Assembly (NCBI RefSeq): GCF_036588685.1
Contig: NC_086382.1
Span: 48,422,001 to 48,486,000 of the forward strand
Origin: Mytilus trossulus
Lineage: Eukaryota
Reading direction: 5' to 3'
Length of the DNA stretch: 64,000 nt
The notes below the pieces were generated by a model that saw nothing but the letters and a program-made list of their open reading frames with translations, searched no databases and was not told the DNA's origin. Positions 39,201 to 52,700 of this stretch are shown piece after piece. The translations under genes were made by a program, and so were the position numbers. Numbering within the stretch: the first letter of the stretch is position 1; every line of letters begins with the position of its first letter.

Positions 39201-41732
39201 TTCTTATGGTAGTTGACAAGACGGAGAAAAGAAATATATAAATTAGTGTTAGTAAACAGTATTATAAAAATAATAAACTCAAGGCAATATAGAAAGCTTA
39301 AACCTTTTAAAAGTATGGAAATAAACTCATCATAGATACCAGGATTAACATTTTAGAGAGTTCAAAATAGTCAGAAGGAATTTCCGCGGGGTTGTAAATC
39401 ATGCATTTTTATGTGAACCTCATTTTATAGACACATATTGGTGAATTGGGTGAATTTCAAGGTGTTGGAAATAAGTATATTTTCAAAATCAGTTTCGCTG
39501 AAGGAAAATCAATATGTGCAATGAAATCTTCTAAAGTTTTTCAATTATCAGACTTCTAGTATGTTTGTGTATGTATTACCAAAAGCACCGAGCCGTGAAT
39601 ACACATATTAAAACTATCGCCAGAGAGTACCATAAACGGTACCGATTTAAACACAACAGATGTGCATTGTTGACGATTTATGTCTCTTAAATGATGCCTG
39701 AGGCGGACATATCTTAATTTAAATTTAATGAGAAGTCGATGACCTTACTAAACCAATCAGGAAAGTATAGTTTGGTAGGATTCGTGTTGCTTAGTCTTTA
39801 GTTTTCTATATTGTGTCTTCTGTACTATAATTTGTCTGTTTGTCTTTTAATTTTTAGCCATGAGGTTGTCAGTTATTTTCAACATATATACACGAGACAA
39901 ATTTGATAAATTGTTAAGAAAAGCGGAACGTGAATATAGAAGTGCGAAAGCTTCGGACTTTGAATCGATATCTGTAAATAATATGAACGAGTTTTGGAAG
40001 AAAATAAGTAGACTTGGACCTAAAAGGGATACATCTATTCCAATAAAAATTATTGACGATAACGGGAATTCTGTACGAAAAGAAGCTGATATTCTAGAAA
40101 AGTGGCGAACTGATTTTTTCAACTTATACCATGGTGAAAATAGTGAACAGTTTGACAGCGATCATTATAATCGAACAAAAGTGCATAAAATCTTATTAGA
40201 ACAAAATATGAATGACCCTTTATATGAACCAAATACATTCATTAACGGTAACATAACACGTGGAGAAACCAGTGACATAGTGATGCACGCTAAGAACAAA
40301 TCTGCCTGTGGTCATGATCACATACCATACATTGTTTTGAAGAATCCCGTAATAATAGATGCCTTGCATAATCTTTTTCAGTGGATTTTCGATACTAGTA
40401 CTATTCCGTCGATCTGGCGAAAGTCCTATTTGTCCTATTCTGAAAGACTATAATACGGACGCTACAGATCCTATGAATTATCGAGGTGTTAGTTTGTTAT
40501 CATGTACCAGTAAAATATACAGCGCTTTAGTTGATAAGAGGATTACGAACTATTTAGAGAGTAACGACAAATTAGTTGACGAGCAAAATAGCTTTAGGAG
40601 AAACCGCTCTTGTGAGGACCATATTTTTACATTGATTAGTGCAATTCGAAACAACGATTAACTTTTTGTGGCTTTCATTGACCTAAAAAAATGCTTCGAT
40701 TTTGTTGACAGAGAAATGATGCTTTATAAACTGTTAATTAATAATATTGATGGTAAAATTTACAACTCTATAAAGAGCATTTACAACAGTTCCGAATATT
40801 GTGTTAAACTGAATGGAAAGTAAACTGACTGGTTCCCCTGTACAACTGTTGTAAAACAAGGAGACACTTTATCGCCTACATTATTTTCAATTTTCATAAA
40901 TGACCTTATAGCTGAACTGAATGAATTGAATATTGGCATTATATCTCAGGCAGGAAATTATCGGCGTTACTTTATGCAGACGATATAGCTTTATTGGCTA
41001 AAAGCGAAGACGATCTACAATTATTGTTAAATAAGCTCGGGGACGAGTGTAAACGCTGGAGAGTCCTAATCAACACCAATAAATCAAAATGTGTTCACTT
41101 CAGAAAATCAAAATGTAAGCAAACTGATTACAATTTCATGATCGGAAGAAATAAACTCGAAGTTGTTGACCAATACAAATACTTGGGTGTTATATTAACA
41201 TTTAACGGAAATTTTACAACAACCGCCGAAGCACTGTCAAAAGGGGCTGGTAGAGGACTTGGGAAAATCATTTCTAACATTCATTCTTTAAAGAGATTGA
41301 AATAAAGTAATTTGAAAAGCTATTTTACTCGTGTGTTGTGCCTATACTAGACTATGCATCCGGAGTTTGGGGGAACCGGAAGTTTCAGGCTATAGAGATC
41401 ATCAAGAACCGATCTATACATTACTTTTTAGGAGTTCGTCGGTTTGCCCCACTTCTTGGTATTTATGGGGATATCGGATGGATCCCGTGCCACTACAGAC
41501 AATGGACTAATATTGTGCGTCTCTGTAATTATACGTTTTTTTATTGAGTTAAGTCTGCCAATTGATATTTTATCGTGTGTTTGGATCCATTAAAACGTTT
41601 AATCCCGCTGCAAATGTTTGCACCTGTTCTAAGTCAGAAATCTGATGTACAGTAGTTGCCGTTTGTTTATGTAATATATACGTGTTTCTCGTTTCTCGTT
41701 TTGTTTATATAGATTACACCGTTGGTTTTCCC

Positions 41733-42027: not shown

Positions 42028-42046
42028 TATCTTTTTTTGGATTCGA

Positions 42047-42088
42047 GCGTCACTGATGAGTCTTTTGTAGACGAAACGCGTCTGGCGT
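42047..42088 (+). ncRNA. Minimal type I hammerhead ribozyme, copy 1
   Basis: GCGTCA-CTGATGA-GTCT(TTTGT)AGAC-GAAA-C(GC)G-TC^TGGCGT: intact core, 4-bp stem II, 1-bp stem III with palindromic ACGCGT, and 6-bp stem I. Predicted cleavage after 42082. Confidence 0.88.
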
Positions 42089-42407
42089 ATATACTAAATT
42101 TAGTCCTGGTATCTATGATGAGTTTATTTACAACCACTGGGTCGATGCCACTGCTGGTGGAGATTTATTTCCCCGAGGGTATCACAAGCCCAGTAGTCAG
42201 CACTTTTTGTGCTGACATGAATTGTCATTGATATGGTTATATTTATAAATTTACTGTTTACAATTTTTTGATTTTTTTTAAATATTAAGGCTTTTCTACC
42301 TCAGGCATAGATTACCTTAGCTGTATTTGGCAACACTTTAAGGAATTTTGGTCTAATGCTCTTCAACTTCGTACTTTTTTTGGCCTTTTTAACTTTTTTG
42401 GATTCGA

Positions 42408-42449
42408 GTGTCACTGATGAGTCTTTTGTAGACGAAACGCGTCTGGCGT
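42408..42449 (+). ncRNA. Minimal type I hammerhead ribozyme, copy 2
   Basis: Same core with one C>T change in stem I (GTGTCA, giving a U-G wobble). Predicted cleavage after 42443. Confidence 0.86.
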
Positions 42450-43073
42450 ATATACTAACTTTAGTCCTGGTATCTATGATGAGTTTATTCCTAACACAGC
42501 TGAGATGTGGAATTCTTCCTTTGAGACTAGAGACGGGTAGATATAGCGGCGAGCAACCAAATGAACGCTTATGTAAGTTTTGTAACAGAAATTCCATGGA
42601 GGATGAGTGTCACTTTATTCTCCACTGCTCCTTATATAATGACTTGAGAGAATCTACTTTTAATGAGATATTTTCTGCGATGAACTACTAAATATGACAA
42701 ACGATGAAAAAATTATCTTTTTGATGACAAACTATCCTAGAAAGCTGGCTAAGTATACAGTGAAAGCGTTCCGGCATAGACGTGAAGTGTTATATAATAC
42801 ATGAACAGTTTGATAAACAGTATATTGCAATTCGAGTTGACAGTATTGAATGTATTTGACTGTAATATGAAAATGTAAAAATGTTACTTCATGGGCATTT
42901 GAATATTTCCAGTTTCTTCATTTTTACAATAAATTTATTATGCACTCAACTGGACATTTATTAAATCGATTTTCTAATAACTTCATTTTTTTTTTATATA
43001 AGTTTGAATTTGTCATTATTAATTAATTATGCATTTAACTTGACATTTACTAAATCGATCTTCTATATATAAT

Positions 43074-43332
43074 AATTAGAAATTTTTAATTGATGTTTAT
43101 ATTAATGTTTCATGTTCTGTCCGACTCGGCTTCTGTTAAAATCATTATTTATTTAGGTGGACGATAAACATTTTATTACTAGATTTATTATGTCTGTGGT
43201 AGAGACGGCAATGTTTTCTTAACCGTCTCATGACTTGGTGCACGTGTTAAATTTTCAATCTTTGTCAGGTTTATTCAGTCAGTTGCATTGATAAGATAGT
43301 AACAGTATAGAAGTGCAAACAATTCAAATCAA
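43074..43332 (+). repeat. Split direct repeat A1
   Basis: Appears identical to 48413-48671. Confidence 0.92.
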
Positions 43333-43379
43333 TATTACTAGTATTTGGTTATTTCATAACTTTTAACTACTTCTTAAAA

Positions 43380-44561
43380 ATGCCGCCAGTTCGTAAAAAG
43401 CGTGTTTCCAGTAAGAAAAGTAAGAAAAGTGACACACCAGTTATACAGAATTCTAATACAGAATTGACACTTGACGAAGTTAAAGGAAAACTAAGAAAGC
43501 AAGGCATCAGGGCTCCATCAACTTTTACAAAAGAGCAGTTATTGGAACTATTAAATGAGAATTCAGGACAGGATAATACAGTTATGCCCGAAATTCCAGC
43601 ATTAACTCAACTTACCACCAGTTTAAACAACATGGAGCAAACTGTTCAAAATCAAGGAACTTTAATTCAGTCGCTATTAGTTAGAGAATCAAATATCATT
43701 AGTCAACCTGCATTCGTGAGTGATATAAATAATGGAGTACATCATGATACAGGATCTTATCACACTACCAAGGTTTCCTCAGGCATGTTTCCGCATGTTC
43801 AAGCAGTGGCACCGAACGTTCGGAAGCAGATTTTAGAAGGCAAGTACATTAATCTGGCTACCCTTCTTAACAATCAAGAAAACGTACAAGATTACAAAAC
43901 CGTTGATGAATCTGACGGGTTCGTATTGTTAATCAAACATCGCGATCCCCGCCTTCAAAGAAACTTGTCTATACAAGAGTTTCTAGAAGCTTTTAATATT
44001 TACAAAAATATTATCTGTGAAAAGCAAGACCGACGAATCGAATTCGATATGTATATTCAAGATATCATTGATATCTCTGCAAGATATAAAGGTCCCGTTT
44101 TCTACGAGTATCACAAGGCTTTCGCAAATAAGGTAGCTGCTATCAAACTGACCCATGGTAAAGTTGTAGATTGGTCCATCAGAGACGAAAAACTCTATTC
44201 ATCCATCACAAGTGGACAAATAATTAAAGAATGTGAAACATGCGGTAGTCTTGGGCATCTCACAGCTGTTTGTCAAACGTTACTAAGCTTTGGTCAATCG
44301 AATAATCGACCGAAACCAACTTATAATCAAACTCATTTTCAGAAATCACAAGTTGGGAGTAACGATCGTGTTGATTCCAATACAGATATACGAGGACGCC
44401 CTGTTCTTTTCTTTCGTGGTCGGGAAGTGTGTAACAATTTCTTATCAGGAAAATGTTTCAAGGTGACAAAATGTTCATTCGCCCATGTTAATACTAGATC
44501 ATCTACTGGTGCTACTCCGAACAATGGGCCGTCACAAGAACAAGCGCAGGCCAAGAATTGA
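43380..44561 (+). CDS. Ngaro gag-like protein (393 aa)
   Basis: N-terminal basic patch and SAP/HeH-like helix pair (LTLDEVKGKLRKQGI...TKEQLLELL), RKQILEGKYINLATLL, FYEYHKAF, CCHC knuckle CETCGSLGHLTAVC and CCCH finger CNNFLSGKCFKVTKCSFAH. Confidence 0.88.
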   Translation: MPPVRKKRVSSKKSKKSDTPVIQNSNTELTLDEVKGKLRKQGIRAPSTFTKEQLLELLNENSGQDNTVMPEIPALTQLTTSLNNMEQTVQNQGTLIQSLLVRESNIISQPAFVSDINNGVHHDTGSYHTTKVSSGMFPHVQAVAPNVRKQILEGKYINLATLLNNQENVQDYKTVDESDGFVLLIKHRDPRLQRNLSIQEFLEAFNIYKNIICEKQDRRIEFDMYIQDIIDISARYKGPVFYEYHKAFANKVAAIKLTHGKVVDWSIRDEKLYSSITSGQIIKECETCGSLGHLTAVCQTLLSFGQSNNRPKPTYNQTHFQKSQVGSNDRVDSNTDIRGRPVLFFRGREVCNNFLSGKCFKVTKCSFAHVNTRSSTGATPNNGPSQEQAQAKN

Positions 44562-46169
44562 CTAGTGTCTACGCCTATTGATATCGATCAACTTGAATTT
44601 GAACTTACACATTATCCAGATAAAAATTTTGTTTTTAATTTAATTAATGGACTTCGATATGGTTTTGACACAGGCATAAACGTACTACCAAGTAAATCTT
44701 TGGAATGTAAGAATTTATTGTCTACCAAGAAATTTCCCGATGATGTTACGAAACTGGTAGATGACGAACTTAGTAAAGGATACCTTATTGGACCATTTAC
44801 AAAACCTCCGTTTGATACTTATAGAATTAGTCCGATAGGTATTGTTGAAGGAAAATATTCAAAAAAGAAAAGATTAATTCTAGACCTCTCGGCTCCTCAC
44901 AACAATGATGAGCATCACAGCATCAACGATTTGATAAATAAGGAAGACTATTCATTAACCTATGTAAGAATTGACGACGCTATAAATATAATTAAGTCAT
45001 TAGGAATTAAAAGTCAATTATGTAAGTGTGACGTAACCGATGCATTCAAATTAATACCTGTACATAATTCTTTATGGCGATTTTATGGATTAAAATGGAA
45101 TGACATGTACTATTTTTATACTCGTTTAGCATTTGGTTGCCGTTCAAGTCCCAAGATATTCGATACATTATCAGTGGCAATATGTTGGATCTTACAACAT
45201 AATTACGGTTTGCGGCACGTGTTACATTTGTTAGACGATTTTCTCCTGATTAACAATCCTTACGTAGATGCTACAAGGAATATGAACACAATGTTATATG
45301 TATTTAATAGTTTAAAGATTCCTCTCAGCGCTCATAAAACAGTTGGTCCATCTACTTCATTAGAATATCTCGGCATAATTCTCGATTCAATGCATATGAT
45401 TGCTAAATTACCTGATGAGAAGCTTGTTAGAATTAAGGATATTTTATACAGCTATCTTAATAGACGTTCATGTACTAAGCGTGAAATGTTAAGTTTATTG
45501 GGTCATCTCAATTATGCATGTAAAGTAATTATACCAGGGAGATCGTTTGTGTCGTATTTATTGACATTAGCACACTCCGTTAAAGAACTTTATCATCACG
45601 TTACAATTACAAAGGGATGTAGAGATGACATGGCAATGTGGTTTAAATTCCTAAGTCAGTGGAATGGTATATCATTTTTTATCAGCGATAACGTTATTAA
45701 TGCGTCCGATTTTCATTTATTTACGGATGCTTCATCAACAATCGGATACGGAGGTTATTTTAGGAAAAGGTGGTTTCAAGGCAGTTGGCCCGACGATTTT
45801 ATTCGGCCCGATGAGGAGTCTTTCTCAATGGCTTACTTAGAATTGTATCCGATTGTTATATCTGCTATTTTATGGGGGCATGAATGGTCTACTAAACGCA
45901 TTCTTTTTCATTGTGATAATATGTCTAGTGTGTACATTATTAATAAGGGTCGTTCAAAGTGTAACGTAATTATGAATCTTGTTCGCCGTTTAACTTGGTG
46001 TGCGGCTAAATTTAATTTTGTTGTACATGCTGTACATGTACCAGGGAAAGAAAATAACATAGCAGATGCTCTTTCTCGTTACCAGATGAAGCGGTTTCGA
46101 CAATTGGCTCCAGAAGCTTCGCCAAATCCATGCACCTGCCCTCCTCATTCCGAAATTGTGTGGAGTTAG
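44562..46169 (+). CDS. Ngaro pol: reverse transcriptase and RNase H (in frame with gag after the UGA)
   Basis: ISPIGIV, RLILDLS, CDVTDAF, LAFGCRSSP, HLLDDF, YLGI; RNase H FTDAS, LELYP, CDN, NNIADALSR. No ATG until about residue 180. Confidence 0.92.
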   Translation, partial: LVSTPIDIDQLEFELTHYPDKNFVFNLINGLRYGFDTGINVLPSKSLECKNLLSTKKFPDDVTKLVDDELSKGYLIGPFTKPPFDTYRISPIGIVEGKYSKKKRLILDLSAPHNNDEHHSINDLINKEDYSLTYVRIDDAINIIKSLGIKSQLCKCDVTDAFKLIPVHNSLWRFYGLKWNDMYYFYTRLAFGCRSSPKIFDTLSVAICWILQHNYGLRHVLHLLDDFLLINNPYVDATRNMNTMLYVFNSLKIPLSAHKTVGPSTSLEYLGIILDSMHMIAKLPDEKLVRIKDILYSYLNRRSCTKREMLSLLGHLNYACKVIIPGRSFVSYLLTLAHSVKELYHHVTITKGCRDDMAMWFKFLSQWNGISFFISDNVINASDFHLFTDASSTIGYGGYFRKRWFQGSWPDDFIRPDEESFSMAYLELYPIVISAILWGHEWSTKRILFHCDNMSSVYIINKGRSKCNVIMNLVRRLTWCAAKFNFVVHAVHVPGKENNIADALSRYQMKRFRQLAPEASPNPCTCPPHSEIVWS

Positions 46170-47200
46170 ACCAAGCAGTCGACAGCTTATGGAATAAAAG
46201 TATCAACGTGAATACCCGCAATGTTTATTCAACAGGATATAAATGTTTTATTCAATTTTGTGGCAATCATATCACTGGATTCAACTCAAGGACTTTCAAT
46301 ATGTCTAAAATTTCGGAAGATTTATTGATCTATTTCGTGGCCCATTGCCAATCAGTGTTAAAACTGAAATATTCAACAATCAAATTATATCTCGCTGGAG
46401 TTCGTTTTCATGGAGTTAATTTTGATAATGTGAACCCACTTTGTGATAAATTTGGTCATACATACCAACGCTTGCAAAATGTGTTAAATGGAGTTAAAAA
46501 ATCTGAGAGTAAGCCATTACGACAAAAGTTACCAATAACGTTTAAAATTTTACAGGAAATAGTAACTTGTTTGCAATGTGGATTTTTCAATCATGATTAT
46601 ATGGATTTAACATTTCAAACAGCGTGTGTTCTGGCATTTTATGGTTTTCTGAGATGCAATGAGTTTACATGTAGAACTGTGTTTGATCCAGATTCAAATT
46701 TATGCGTTTCTGACATAAATTTCGTTTCAGAATGCGAAGTAACTGTTAATTTAAAAGCTACAAAGACAGATATATTCCGACAAGGTATTATAATTTCCTT
46801 GTTCAAGATAGAGGGCGTCGTTTGTCCGTATAAATTGCTATCCCAGCTGATGAGTGTAAGATTAAACCTAAACGCAAAGCAGAATGATTCGTTTCTCGTT
46901 GAAGAAACCGGAAAACCACTTTCCCGGAACTATTTTATAAGCAAGCTGAAAACAATACTCATAGCATTAGGATATAGTGACAAGGATTATAGCGGACATC
47001 CTTTTCGATCAGGTGCGGCCACAAGTGCTAGTTCTCAAGGTATTGAGGACAGCATGATACAAACACTGGGACGTTGGAAATCAGATTGTTTTAAACGTTA
47101 CATTAGAACTTCCAATTGGATATTAAATCCGCGCTGGAAAAGATTAAATGACAAGATACAATGCCGAAAACGTTTTTTACCATCGGTTATAACTTTGTAA
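46130..47200 (+). CDS. Ngaro tyrosine recombinase
   Basis: FYGFLRCNEF (R), KATKTD (K), SGHPFRSGAA (HxxR), LGRWKS (W) and FKRYIR (Y). Overlaps the pol 3' end by 40 nt. The C-terminus is probably frameshifted. Confidence 0.92.
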   Translation: MHLPSSFRNCVELDQAVDSLWNKSINVNTRNVYSTGYKCFIQFCGNHITGFNSRTFNMSKISEDLLIYFVAHCQSVLKLKYSTIKLYLAGVRFHGVNFDNVNPLCDKFGHTYQRLQNVLNGVKKSESKPLRQKLPITFKILQEIVTCLQCGFFNHDYMDLTFQTACVLAFYGFLRCNEFTCRTVFDPDSNLCVSDINFVSECEVTVNLKATKTDIFRQGIIISLFKIEGVVCPYKLLSQLMSVRLNLNAKQNDSFLVEETGKPLSRNYFISKLKTILIALGYSDKDYSGHPFRSGAATSASSQGIEDSMIQTLGRWKSDCFKRYIRTSNWILNPRWKRLNDKIQCRKRFLPSVITL

Positions 47201-47457
47201 TTTGTCCTCCATCCTAGCCTTGTGTCTTTTCTTCTCACGTTGATCTCAATATTGTGGTTAAGGATTTTTATATTGACATTAATTTTTCTCTAGATCAACT
47301 TTAATTTTAACAAGACACAAGGCTTCATCAGGCACAACATCTTCAATCTTTTGGGGTTACTCAATATGCAACTTGGGCAGGCAACATAACGTTACATATT
47401 TCGTTTTGGGCTATGATATTTTATTTTGGCCAAATATAATATCGTTTCCCCAAAACA

Positions 47458-48414
47458 TTTCTGAGTAGTTAGGGTGCCTACGTGCCTTAACGAGGAATAG
47501 TGTCATCTTGATTGCTCAACAGCTCTATTTCACGTCGGTCTATGCCCACAAAGATTTACTCTTATGCGGTACCACGTGGAAAATCAAGTAAGGCTATACC
47601 GCTCGGGAACGGCTTGCTAAAGTACTCTGAGACAAGTAGACTGGTAGTCGTACACACACGTGTATGCAAATACCCCTATGGTGACGCATTTCTGTCAAAG
47701 ATATGTGGCTAGCTCAGGCACAGTATTTTAGCGGCAAATTATCCTTAATTATCTGAGAACACACTATCATTTTATGTACATACTGTGTGTTTTGTGTCAA
47801 CTGCAGGTAGCATGTAATTTGTTTTGTTCTTGATTTACAATATGACAGAACTGAGTGAATTACATGATACTAGAGAAAAAATATCCTCAAGCATTCACAC
47901 AGTGTGCCGCGCACACTGCTCGGATAGTTAAGTATAATGTTGGCGTCAGTTAGTTTACATTCATCGCTTTTTATTCACTGACGCCAAGGAAGTTTTCTGT
48001 AACATAACGTGTTGCCCTTAAGCCCAAATATTTGTATAATAAAAATAATTATTTTATTATGTTTTATATTCATTCAGTACTCAAACAATCAGACTGGGTA
48101 TCTTGAAATACTTCCTGCTGGACGTTTAAGGCTTTATATCAACAATAACTACTTTCGTAATTATGGTATATTGTCTGTGATCGTTCTTATAGACGGTCAT
48201 TAAAAGCTATCAATTATCTGCGGTCAAGGTTAATTTATATGTATTTGTACATATCTCTAATCATTGTTCACGCCTGTAATTCTCTTATCAAAGGTCTATT
48301 AAGGTCAACGCATTGAGGTTTTATTAGTAAATTGGCTTTGGTCTGCTGTGTCGGTATTAACTTTGGATCATACGCTTGATGTGTATTTATTATGTTTGAA
48401 ACATGTTGTATAAA
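47458..48414 (+). repeat. Split direct repeat B1
   Basis: Near-identical to 48776-49732 (offset 1318). Confidence 0.92.
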
Positions 48415-48671
48415 TTAGAAATTTTTAATTGATGTTTATATTAATGTTTCATGTTCTGTCCGACTCGGCTTCTGTTAAAATCATTATTTATTTAGGTGGA
48501 CGATAAACATTTTATTACTAGATTTATTATGTCTGTGGTAGAGACGGCAATGTTTTCTTAACCGTCTCATGACTTGGTGCACGTGTTAAATTTTCAATCT
48601 TTGTCAGGTTTATTCAGTCAGTTGCATTGATAAGATAGTAACAGTATAGAAGTGCAAACAATTCAAATCAA
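48413..48671 (+). repeat. Split direct repeat A2
   Basis: Copy of A1, directly abutting B1. Confidence 0.92.
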
Positions 48672-48775
48672 CCCTCCAGCCGCCCCAACACCGCCGATTA
48701 TTATGAAGATGTTGTGCCTTTATGGTTCACGTTATGTTACTATAATAAATGATCAGGCCAGACATTTATGAACAT

Positions 48776-49732
48776 TTTCTGAGTAGTTAGGGTGCCTACG
48801 TGCCTTAACGAGGAATAGTCTCATCTTGATTGCTCAACAGCTCTATTTCACGTCGGTCTATGCCCACAAAGATTTACTCTTATGCGGTACCACGTGGAAA
48901 ATCAAGTAAGGCTATACCGCTCGGGAACGGCTTGCTAAAGTACTCTGAGACAAGTAGACTGGTAGTCGTACACACACGTGTATGCAAATACCCCTATGGT
49001 GACGCATTTCTGTCAAAGATATGTGAATAGCTCAGGCACAGTATTTTAGCGGCAAATTATCCTTAATTATCTGAGAACACACTATCATTTTATGTACATA
49101 CTGTGTGTTTTGTGTCAACTGCAGGTAGCATGTAATTTGTTTTGTTCTTGATTTACAATATGACAGAACTGAGTGAATTACATGATACTAGAGAAAAAAT
49201 ATCCTCAAGCATTCACACAGTGTGCCGCGCACACTGCTCGGATAGTTAAGTATAATGTTGGCGTCAGTTAGTTTACATTCATCGCTTTTTATTCACTGAC
49301 GCCAATGAAGTTTTCTGTAACATAACGTGTTGCCCTTAAGCCCAAATATTTGTATAATAAAAATAATTATTTTATTATGTTTTATATTCTTTCAGTACTC
49401 AAACAATCAGACTGGGTATCTTGAAATACTTCCTGCTGGACGTTTAAGGCTTTATATCAACAATAACTACTTTCGTAATTATGGTATATTGTCTGTGATC
49501 GTTCTTATAGACGGTCATTAAAAGCTATCAATTATCTGCGGTCAAGGTTAATTTATATGTATTTGTACATATCTCTAATCATTGTTCACGCCTGTAATTC
49601 TCTTATCAAAGGTCTATTAAGGTCAACGCATTGAGGTTTTATTAGTTAATTGGCTTTGGTCTGCTGTGTCGGTATTAACTTTGGATCATACGCTTGATGT
49701 GTATTTATTATGTTTGAAACATGTTGTATAAA
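48776..49732 (+). repeat. Split direct repeat B2
   Basis: Copy of B1; terminal. Confidence 0.92.
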
Positions 49733-52700
49733 CTTCATTTTTTATATAAGTTTGAATTTTTCATTATTAATTAATTATTTTGAAATTTAGCTTAATCTTA
49801 CTTTTCATTATTTTGTTTGAAATCCGTGATAAAAGAATTACGTTTTGTTATTTGAAAGTGACTTATAGACTCAATGGGTCGGGTGTATTTTATTGTGTAT
49901 GTAATATATTTGTACTTCATTGAGATGTGATTACACATGTCACTATAATAAACATTTACTTACTTACTTACTTTCCTACTATTTATGAGTTTGACTGTCC
50001 CTCTGGTTTCCTTCGTCCCTCTTTCATTATTTGTTAAAACTTTCGATATCAGTAGATACGTATAACTTTCCCTATGATAAGTTATGTCTGCATCGGAATA
50101 CACTTTACATAGATACCGTGATTAAATTTATATACGACAGACGCGTGTTTTCGTCGAGAAAGACTGACGCTCGAATAACAAAAGTGTAAATGGCCAAATT
50201 TAGACTTAAAGTTGAAGAGCATTGATTGTACCATACATATCCTCCGAAATAGGCCAATTGACTTAATCTGTAAAAGAGGTATTATATTAGAACTATTTTG
50301 TTTAGAAAATAACAAATGCAATTCTTTAGAATAATATCAATACGTGGTTTGATTGGTTACAATTTTGTTTTCTTATTAGATAGAAAACTATGGAAAATAC
50401 GCAACATATACCTCAAAACATTTTTTTTTAAATAACATGAATTTCGGTTATAGTCTAATAATTGAATACCTTTAGATGATTTTAAAGCACACTTTAATTA
50501 TCCTTCAGCGAGACTGATATTGAGAATATACTTAGTTTCACTAATGTGACATGCCATGGAATCATACTCCGTATGACAAAGAAAACTATATTTGAAGAGA
50601 TAAAAAAGAAAATCAAAAATTAGTTGGTTTCTCTAATCAATTGAGAATTTGAAGAACATTGAATAAAAATATACAAAAACTTGTCTATCTATAATTTGGG
50701 ATAAAAAAAATCCGTAACTCGCTTAATTCGGACGATTAATTCTGCTGATCTTCGATGACTGTTTTAACGCTTTGGATGAAATCGGACACAGGGAGGGATT
50801 TAATTATTCGATTTAGAAAAACCGTAGTATTTCGGAGGACCTTGATGTTCATGATCACTAAATTTTTCGAATATGACGTTGAACAGAACATGCATATTGG
50901 GTATCAAGGTTATTTCGAGTCGAACTTCAAAAGTTACGAAGATTTGCACAGACCTGGTGGTTGTTAACGCTAATCATAGATACCAGGTTTATAAACTTGA
51001 GCGCCAGACACGAATTTCATCTATATTCAATTGATTTGTGGCGATCTAATCATAGCAATTGCCAGAAACCTGTACAAAATGTGTTATTTGATTTCTAAAA
51101 TTTTTACTACCAAAATTAATACTATTCACAAAATGAATTATTCATATTGATTTGAGTCAAATAAAATACTCTTTTGAGACTGTCGCTTTTTTTAATTAAT
51201 GTGATTTTTTCTAATCATTTATAATTAGAAAGTAAACATATTTTTGTGGTTTTTCAAATCAATTGTCATCTATAATTAGATATTACACAGCTTTTTTTAT
51301 GTGGTTTTATATTTACTTTATCTATTATACATTTTCGCGTTATTAAAACAAAAGAATGTTCATATATTTTGTAAAAATTAGCATTTTAGTAATTTATAAT
51401 CATCTTTTAATGTAAAAGTCAAATTATATAGTACATTGTCCTTGCCATTGGATATGTATTTAAAAAAAACATATTTACAAAATATGTTTTGCTGATATTT
51501 ATGTAAAAGGATATTAGATATTGCAAATATCACAAATATATGTGCAAGTACAAAAATGGAAAAAAAATATAAACGATTTCCTGTATTCTCTAGAATAAAA
51601 ATAATTAAATAAAAAAAAGATAAAATGTAATCCAATTGTATGAGTGTTACCTGTAGTATGAAACATCCAGCAGAGATTTGTTAAATGATGATGTTTTACA
51701 TTTCCAATAGTTATGCTTAATTGAACTCATTTGCAATTTTTTAGAACAATCCGGAAGGAATCTTAAGCATTTTAATTTGTGAATGTTAGACGTTAAATTT
51801 GACTTGTTATTGTAAAAGCAAAAGTATATGTTAATAGCACTAAATGATTTTAAAATACTAACAAATAGGCAAACATTAAAAGTTTGTTAAATTGTACCCG
51901 GACCTTTTAGCACAAACAGATAGGAACAGTTTTATCTAAATCTTCCCTTCAAAATTGCATCCCAAATTCCATAAGTCCTAGTGTAATATATTTCTTCTAC
52001 GCGTCTAACATTACTTTTTCAATACTTTCTGAGAGCTAGGGTCGTTTAATTATACTTTATCTATACTTTATCAAATAAGTGAATACTATATACAGTATTG
52101 ACAATCAATTACAAATAAATGTTTTAATCGTATCAATTACATAAACATTTGATTTTTGGCGTCTTTATCAAGTTATCTATCAACTACAATCTGGTTTTTT
52201 TTCGTGTTTGCTAGATTCATTTGTATGTTTCTTTGAGTTTGAAGGCAGTTAGTGTGGGAAATTTGTGAATTGTGTTTGCACAGATTTGGCTACTGAACCA
52301 CACTTATTGCAACATAAACCTTTTATTTCTGTTTAAGTTGCCCACCAAATTTTGTCATTATAACGACATGTGAATAATTTTACAAATAAATACACTATCT
52401 GGATTGAATATGTTTAGTTTGTCGAAATGCAAGAATACCAACCTCTAATTCAAAAAGAGGAAGCCATAAAAAAAAAACCCTGACCAAACCAAACAATATC
52501 AACGAACGGAATGTAAAAAAACCCATCTTATTCCCTACTCGAAGCAGGCATTTTCAAATTTTGTTTTAGTTGTGAAGCTAGTTTAACCTCCAACTTGTAG
52601 GCCAGTTGCTTATGGTTGCGTTATATCGACAAAAAATGGGTGAAAAACCGAACAGACATAAGAGGTTTAAATGACAGTCACTTGGATCCAGCCGCCAAGA

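Follow-up and report, generated by a model that had tools for sequence, protein, structure and literature searches.

The element and its genes

The window, by which we mean the whole stretch of 64,000 nucleotides from Mytilus trossulus that was analysed, carries a young retrotransposon of the Ngaro type on its forward strand. The RT/RNase H frame and the tyrosine recombinase (YR) lie on the same strand, as judged from open reading frames and Pfam matches (Table 1). Proteins that are 98–100% identical bear the names of Mytilus edulis and M. galloprovincialis, as expected of a mussel host. The N-terminus of Gag is HeH/LEM-like, and a CCCH finger lies at about 44418-44489; the Pfam matches of Gag are weak in the window (E 0.16–0.18), and zf-CCCH is matched with E 9e-5 in a sister family. 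Pol matches RVT_1 (E 6e-9) and, weakly, RVT_3 (E 0.0013), and the third frame matches Phage_integrase (E 5e-6). No further open reading frame or Pfam family match in the element pointed to a DDE integrase or a protease. There was no family match to a methyltransferase either, and pol stops at residue 535, just past the RNase H-like match at residues 441–506. A methyltransferase after the RNase H is the trait that separates DIRS1 and PAT from Ngaro.

Table 1. Features of the retrotransposon, in positions of the window.
Feature	Position	Strand	Remarks
Whole Ngaro-type YR retrotransposon	43076..49732	+	About 6.66 kb; copies mostly 96–99.6% identical
Split direct repeat A1	43076..43332	+	259/259 identical to A2 where compared
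gag ORF, 393 aa	43380..44561	+	ATG at 43380, TGA at 44559-44561
Predicted phase-1 GC splice donor in gag	43837..43845	+	Intron starts at 43840; Gly codon bias
In-frame UGA-CUAG, likely readthrough signal	44559..44565	+	Sequence; conservation in copies and families
pol ORF (RT + RNase H), 535 aa	44562..46169	+	First ATG at 45105
Predicted 3' splice site	46062..46085	+	Pyrimidine run and CAG at 46083-46085, into the recombinase frame
Tyrosine recombinase frame, -1 relative to pol	46085..47200	+	No conserved ATG; frame of this copy broken near 47113
Split direct repeat B1	47454..48414	+	949/955 identical to B2
Split direct repeat A2	48415..48671	+	Adjoins B1
Unique spacer, A2 to B2	48672..48770	+	C-rich at its start
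Split direct repeat B2	48771..49732	+	Paired with B1

The direct repeats of the window family follow the order A1 ... B1 A2 B2, with the B1 A2 B2 part downstream of the YR. Among eight other families that were fetched, the full A1-B1A2-B2 pattern was present in three (L223, L227, L228), partial or permuted in three and not clear in two. No target-site duplication was found; the left and right flanks of full-length copies are unrelated, and the flanks differ between copies. With its split direct repeats, no target duplication and no methyltransferase the element fits Ngaro, as the group is defined (split repeats, no methyltransferase) in passages of PMC4157794, PMC7192593 and PMC9210276.

The spacer at 48672-48770 is G-rich on the opposite strand and may be a priming signal. 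The element was inserted into a degenerate tandem repeat, as seen from an AT-rich repeat of 41 nt that flanks it on both sides (42990-43030 and 49738-49778, 98% identical). Upstream lie two minimal cores resembling hammerhead ribozymes, at 42044-42082 and 42405-42443, with a spacing of 361 nt. They are part of a 96-nt repeat and match Rfam Hammerhead_3 below the gathering score (E 0.012 and 0.08). Such cores are associated with Penelope-like or retrozyme repeats. Another, decayed retroelement is found in pieces at 39851-41305, with RVT_1 in two of the three ORFs scanned, and is likely a LINE.

The junction between gag and pol

Gag and pol lie in one reading frame and are parted by a single TGA-CTAG. 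The letters at 44556-44573 are AAT TGA CTA GTG TCT ACG, just as an earlier note on this DNA had read them, and its statement that pol continues in the gag frame with no ATG for about 180 codons is also correct. The first ATG is codon 182, within the RT, past the motif CDV (residue 156) and ahead of LLDD (residue 223), which implies that translation begun there would give a protein with an incomplete RT core. The predicted Gag-Pol fusion has a length of 929 aa.

A DNA search of the genome gave 18 matches, 15 of which belong to the family of the window. At the stop, 12 of these copies read TGACTAG and one reads TGACTGG, one has a 12-nt in-frame deletion and one has TTA. The TGA is kept in 13 of the 15 copies, and both exceptions are otherwise decayed. 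In the copy with the deletion (L013, the same as L220) the stop is removed and gag is fused to pol, and the copy is broken further on. The earlier note had considered that other copies might carry a sense codon at this place, which is not what the copies show. The stop could be taken for a nonsense mutation of single copies in a once-fused gag-pol, seeing that it is missing in two of the 15 copies, but those two are decayed and the stop is present in all 32 in-frame families described below. The family counts refute this reading, and its probability is practically nil.

Conservation of UGA-C among distant families

The sample of relatives was drawn from the genome, where 105 of 150 matches to the N-terminus of pol were taken, and from metagenomes, with 80 of 137 relatives; 172 loci were analysed. 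Of these, 150 with a pol match of at least 250 aa were grouped into 59 families at 80% linkage; the other 22 loci, 18 of them at clade level, have short or stop-ridden pol matches and stand outside the family counts. Viral contigs gave 145 pattern matches, none of which was a relative. Forty-six families are at least 43% identical to the window pol, and in these the gag frame was anchored on the CCCH finger. Gag and pol are in one open frame in 32 families and overlap in the -1 frame in 12, and two could not be anchored (L147 and L177, both with TGA-CCA in the pol frame). With L177 left out, the remaining 45 families form a clade supported 100/100 against 13 more distant families, some of which bear an SGNH hydrolase. 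The pol of the clade is 33–38% identical to that of hydrolase-bearing Ngaro-like families of this genome.

The earlier note had proposed to see whether TGACTAG is invariant. The UGA-C part is, since gag ends with TGA-C in 32/32 in-frame families, but the full CTAG is not, the codon after the TGA being CTA in 17, CAA in 5, CTG in 4, CTT in 2, CTC in 2, CAG in 1 and CCG in 1. Thirteen of the in-frame families come from this genome and 19 from metagenome contigs only; the GC3 of the metagenome-only families reaches 0.56, as compared to 0.25–0.31 in this genome. Counted per locus, TGA-C is found in 71/73, and the two exceptions, L076 and L094, look like damaged copies.

Other stops of the same families served as controls, and TGA-C was found at 1/29 pol stops and 3/28 YR stops, 4/57 in total (Fisher p = 4e-20 against the gag stops, a value that overstates independence because the families are related). 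The gag stops of the families with a -1 overlap are TGA in 0/12. In the 22 in-frame families with intact pol the median amino acid identity is about 54%, and at four-fold sites the median identity over 231 pairs of families is 31%, the level of saturation, which implies that the motif is not passively inherited. Furthermore, leucine after the stop is encoded by CTN in 25/25 cases as compared to a background of 51%, and glutamine and proline are also found there, which suggests that the constraint acts on the base. No conservation is seen from +7 on, and the sequence 5' of the stop is rich in A. The layout of the readthrough type is scattered over many deep branches of the tree. Judged from these comparisons, the leaky UGA-C context is real and under selection.

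Other routes into pol

No conserved splice acceptor, start codon, SECIS element or 3' RNA structure was found at the junction. The search for 3' structure covered 80-nt windows at 16 offsets in the 32 families, and the windows that begin at the stop gave z < -2 in 0/32. Long-range duplexes and window folds at the junction were no better than shuffles, and the region past the stop was slightly less paired than controls (p 0.012). The downstream 150 nt, where the earlier note had left room for a stimulator, hold no structure that the folds support. A 3' stimulatory structure is present in many cases of readthrough but is not required; its lack here suggests that the rate of readthrough may be low.

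Pol could instead be made from a spliced RNA in which an intron removes the stop. The elements do appear to splice for their recombinase, as described below, and one gag-to-pol joint, at CCAG near 44619, is common to five public gene models of M. edulis; it leads from residue ~382 of gag to residue 21 of pol and skips the stop. Also, the distant hydrolase-bearing families L110, L112 and L113 have a pyrimidine run and CAG before pol. Against this, the acceptor AG of the models is found in 8/22 families, which matches neutral use of proline codons, and the required position of the donor has GT or GC in 0/16 copies examined. The joint would also remove the nearly invariant TPI motif. Between the stop and the first motif of pol, the phase of the AGs is variable, and 5–6 of the 32 families have none there (6 by the automated count; 5 if L134, whose motif that count put in the wrong place, is set aside). 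A spliced pol would explain neither the invariant UGA-C nor the shared frame. A pattern search of this genome for the gene variant implied by the public Gag-Pol models gave 0 matches.

A GT..AG joint was not found in the contigs of eight public runs, two recorded as RNA and six guessed to be so. The contigs of X1, X2 and X3, which are RNA only by guess, bridge the junction unspliced, and their listed differences are explained, none of them falling on the stop. This is a weak test, because the predicted splice for the recombinase is also unseen there; since contigs drop rare forms, the missing joint is no evidence against that splice. The earlier note had named a spliced transcript as a finding that would speak against readthrough, and with no conserved acceptor at the junction, and with unspliced contigs as far as they tell, we consider a spliced pol very unlikely in this clade. 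Outside it, in L110, L112, L113, L105 and L101, gag ends before pol and a pyrimidine run lies ahead of pol, accompanied by CAG in L105, L110, L112 and L113, and these may have a spliced pol. Several such families have an SGNH hydrolase ORF after the YR.

It is also conceivable that translation of pol is started afresh, by termination and reinitiation, from an internal promoter as in Tca2, or at a non-AUG start. In 7 of the 32 families (8 counting L134) an ATG in the pol frame lies past the stop and ahead of the first motif, the RefSeq-type models P0009 and P0024 begin at such an ATG, and a minor promoter is reported at the Tca2 junction in a passage of PMC2194720. The ATG count is, against this, what chance gives (7.2 families expected), and the first ATG in the window lies past the first catalytic motif of the RT. 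CTG follows the stop in just 4/32 families. A fresh start needs neither a shared frame nor UGA-C, and there is only a slim chance that it accounts for pol.

Finally, the UGA might be decoded as selenocysteine or altered by RNA editing, as could be argued from the stop being UGA in 32/32 families. No Rfam family, SECIS included, matched at E <= 1 over 42900-49900, and the UGA does not sit at a cysteine position but in a variable linker that cannot be aligned, with the first motif of pol following after a few to about 28 codons. As for editing, no difference falls on the stop in the contigs of X1, X2 and X3, runs that are only guessed to be RNA. Both are extremely unlikely.

Relatives with overlapping frames

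In the 12 families with a -1 overlap, an in-register A_AAA_AAC was found in eight and C_CCU_UUA in one, and three had no canonical heptamer. By contrast, A_AAA_AAC in register within the last 43 gag codons was found in 0/32 in-frame families. The families with A_AAA_AAC are L124, L072 and L056 from the genome of the window and L136, L151, L153, L154 and L161. Some of these loci then have a hairpin of the GGGCC type, and are candidates for a programmed frameshift; the hairpins 3' of slippery sites reached z < -2 in just 2/10 loci. It appears from the sequences that the relatives with an overlap also arrive at this Gag-Pol fusion, through a different, known kind of recoding, and this lends support to the reading of gag and pol as a fusion. 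Monophyly of the readthrough families is not rejected (AU test, p 0.418), and we therefore claim no order for the switch between readthrough and frameshifting.

Two further cases were observed. L155, L158, L160 and L164 form a deep-branching group with a -1 overlap of gag and pol and no canonical slippery heptamer. L163 has an open frame of 1023 codons that ends in pol, with an N-terminal part unlike the Gag frame, and its sibling members overlap in the -1 frame.

Expression of the recombinase

The YR frame is 364 codons long in 8/13 other copies as compared to 380 in the window copy. An in-register canonical slippery site in the overlap of pol and YR is absent in 29/32 families. At the predicted donor the glycine codon is GGT in 22, GGC in 3 and GGG in 5 of 30 families, and GGT makes up 30% elsewhere. 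In the acceptor region glutamine is CAG in 35 cases and CAA in one, as compared to 220 and 230 elsewhere in pol, and the acceptor CAG is present in 32/32 families with intact pol. Donor and acceptor are both in phase 1.

Among 16 public YR proteins listed at a length of at least 440 aa, 13 were inspected, all of them gene models and not reads. Five join Gag to YR at the predicted pair of donor and acceptor, and these come from Mytilus californianus, M. galloprovincialis, Ylistrum and Saccostrea. In three others Gag is joined to YR from a more upstream position, and five join pieces of pol to YR. It is likely, from the codon use and the gene models, that the recombinase, which has no ATG of its own, is made by a separate Gag-to-YR splice. 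A second RNA would lose a 2246-nt GC-AG intron, 43840-46085, which takes out the UGA and pol and would put the recombinase behind the first 153 codons of Gag. As the UGA lies within the predicted intron, the YR would not need readthrough.

A model for Gag-Pol

We regard it as likely that the 929-aa Gag-Pol is made by programmed readthrough across the conserved UGA-C. On the unspliced RNA, ribosomes would now and then read through the stop, in a few percent of cases or less, and give Gag-Pol beside abundant Gag, and the rate of readthrough would set the ratio of Gag to Pol. The signal would be the short context alone, UGA-C, mostly in the form UGA-CUA, preceded by A-rich sequence and acting without RNA structure. 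The earlier note had proposed this mechanism: the layout stands, it holds in the copies and in all 32 in-frame families, and no other conserved entry into pol was found, while the readthrough itself and its role for the ratio are what we infer from this. Passages of PMC4132726 describe UGA-CUAG as a context of efficient readthrough, and UGA-CUA alone as giving 1.5% in human cells.

Taken together, there is a good chance that one large lineage of animal Ngaro elements makes Gag-Pol by readthrough of UGA-C, free of structure, or by -1 frameshifting at A_AAA_AAC, the two being interchangeable, and Gag-recombinase by splicing. If so, these elements have an expression programme like that of retroviruses, the splice replaces the frameshift model for the YR, and the elements offer a large natural collection of minimal readthrough signals of the UGA-C kind. 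The parts of the literature surveyed gave no demonstration of how a Pol and a recombinase that lack an ATG are made in YR retrotransposons. The positions given here are exact and can be tested for the expression of both, and the young family is present in runs recorded as or guessed to be RNA. It also follows that intact Ngaro copies with such a stop are prone to be mis-scored as pseudogenes, or to be given invented introns by gene finders.

Readthrough is a known mechanism, here likely at work in a group of retroelements for which we found no description of it. The earlier note knew of no demonstrated case in DIRS/Ngaro, and our search, which covered literature other than the key Poulter reviews, Gao et al. 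2003 and Repbase, found no published report of readthrough between gag and pol in these elements. The passages seen of PMC8547959, PMC6681497, PMC3783388, PMC8226300 and a zebrafish preprint do not report it.

Comparison with known systems

Hydrolase-less Ngaro elements (order DIRS) are like the window element in having a gag with a CCCH finger, RT/RNase H and YR on one strand, no methyltransferase, and split direct repeats in the A1-B1A2-B2 pattern. That the frames of DIRS/Ngaro usually overlap, as the earlier note had it, agrees with passages of PMC9210276, where the ORFs of the Xenopus Ngaro overlap, but not with PMC3266345, which says in part that Ngaro elements do not usually have overlaps. 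In amphioxus the Ngaro frames are described as alternate (PMC2632668, in part). The window element differs from both in its one frame across UGA-C. For the YR of Ngaro, frameshifting was proposed by Poulter and Butler 2015, as quoted in a passage of PMC13003380, whereas a splice is predicted in the window element.

The vertebrate genes OPRL1, OPRK1, AQP4 and MAPK10 have the same stop and 3' context, UGA-CUAG (PMC4132726, in part), and Sindbis virus has UGA-C, going by a title cited in PMC10085805. In contrast to these cases, the extension in the window element is a whole enzyme of 535 aa, and only the C at +4 is invariant. In murine leukaemia virus and Tca2 of Candida, as in the window element, gag is parted from pol by one in-frame stop. 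The gag stop of murine leukaemia virus is UAG. Its readthrough is stimulated by a pseudoknot, according to passages of PMC4132726, whereas no structure is supported in the window element. In yeast reporters the gag-UGA-pol junction of Tca2 alone gave no readthrough and held a promoter, as a passage of PMC2194720 has it. By analogy, the Tca2 result counts against readthrough from the junction alone and is a caution for the model.

The closest precedent for gag-UGA-C-pol in Ngaro is found in the Ty3/gypsy elements Tj1, Tosmo1-3 and Tcry1 of fission yeasts, where gag and pol are likewise parted by a TGA in frame, with CTA or CTG as the next codon. The passages of PMC10085805 describe TGA-CT as conserved at this place and read it as programmed readthrough, with relatives that use -1 frameshifting, and the stop of Tj1 is reported there to be essential for transposition. 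These are fungal LTR elements with a protease and a DDE integrase, five families as compared to the 32 here, and they have a GAA codon 5' of the stop, which is not fixed in the Ngaro families. The Ngaro elements would thus be the third group of retroelements, after the gammaretroviruses and some LTR elements, to have converged on a leaky stop to ration Pol.
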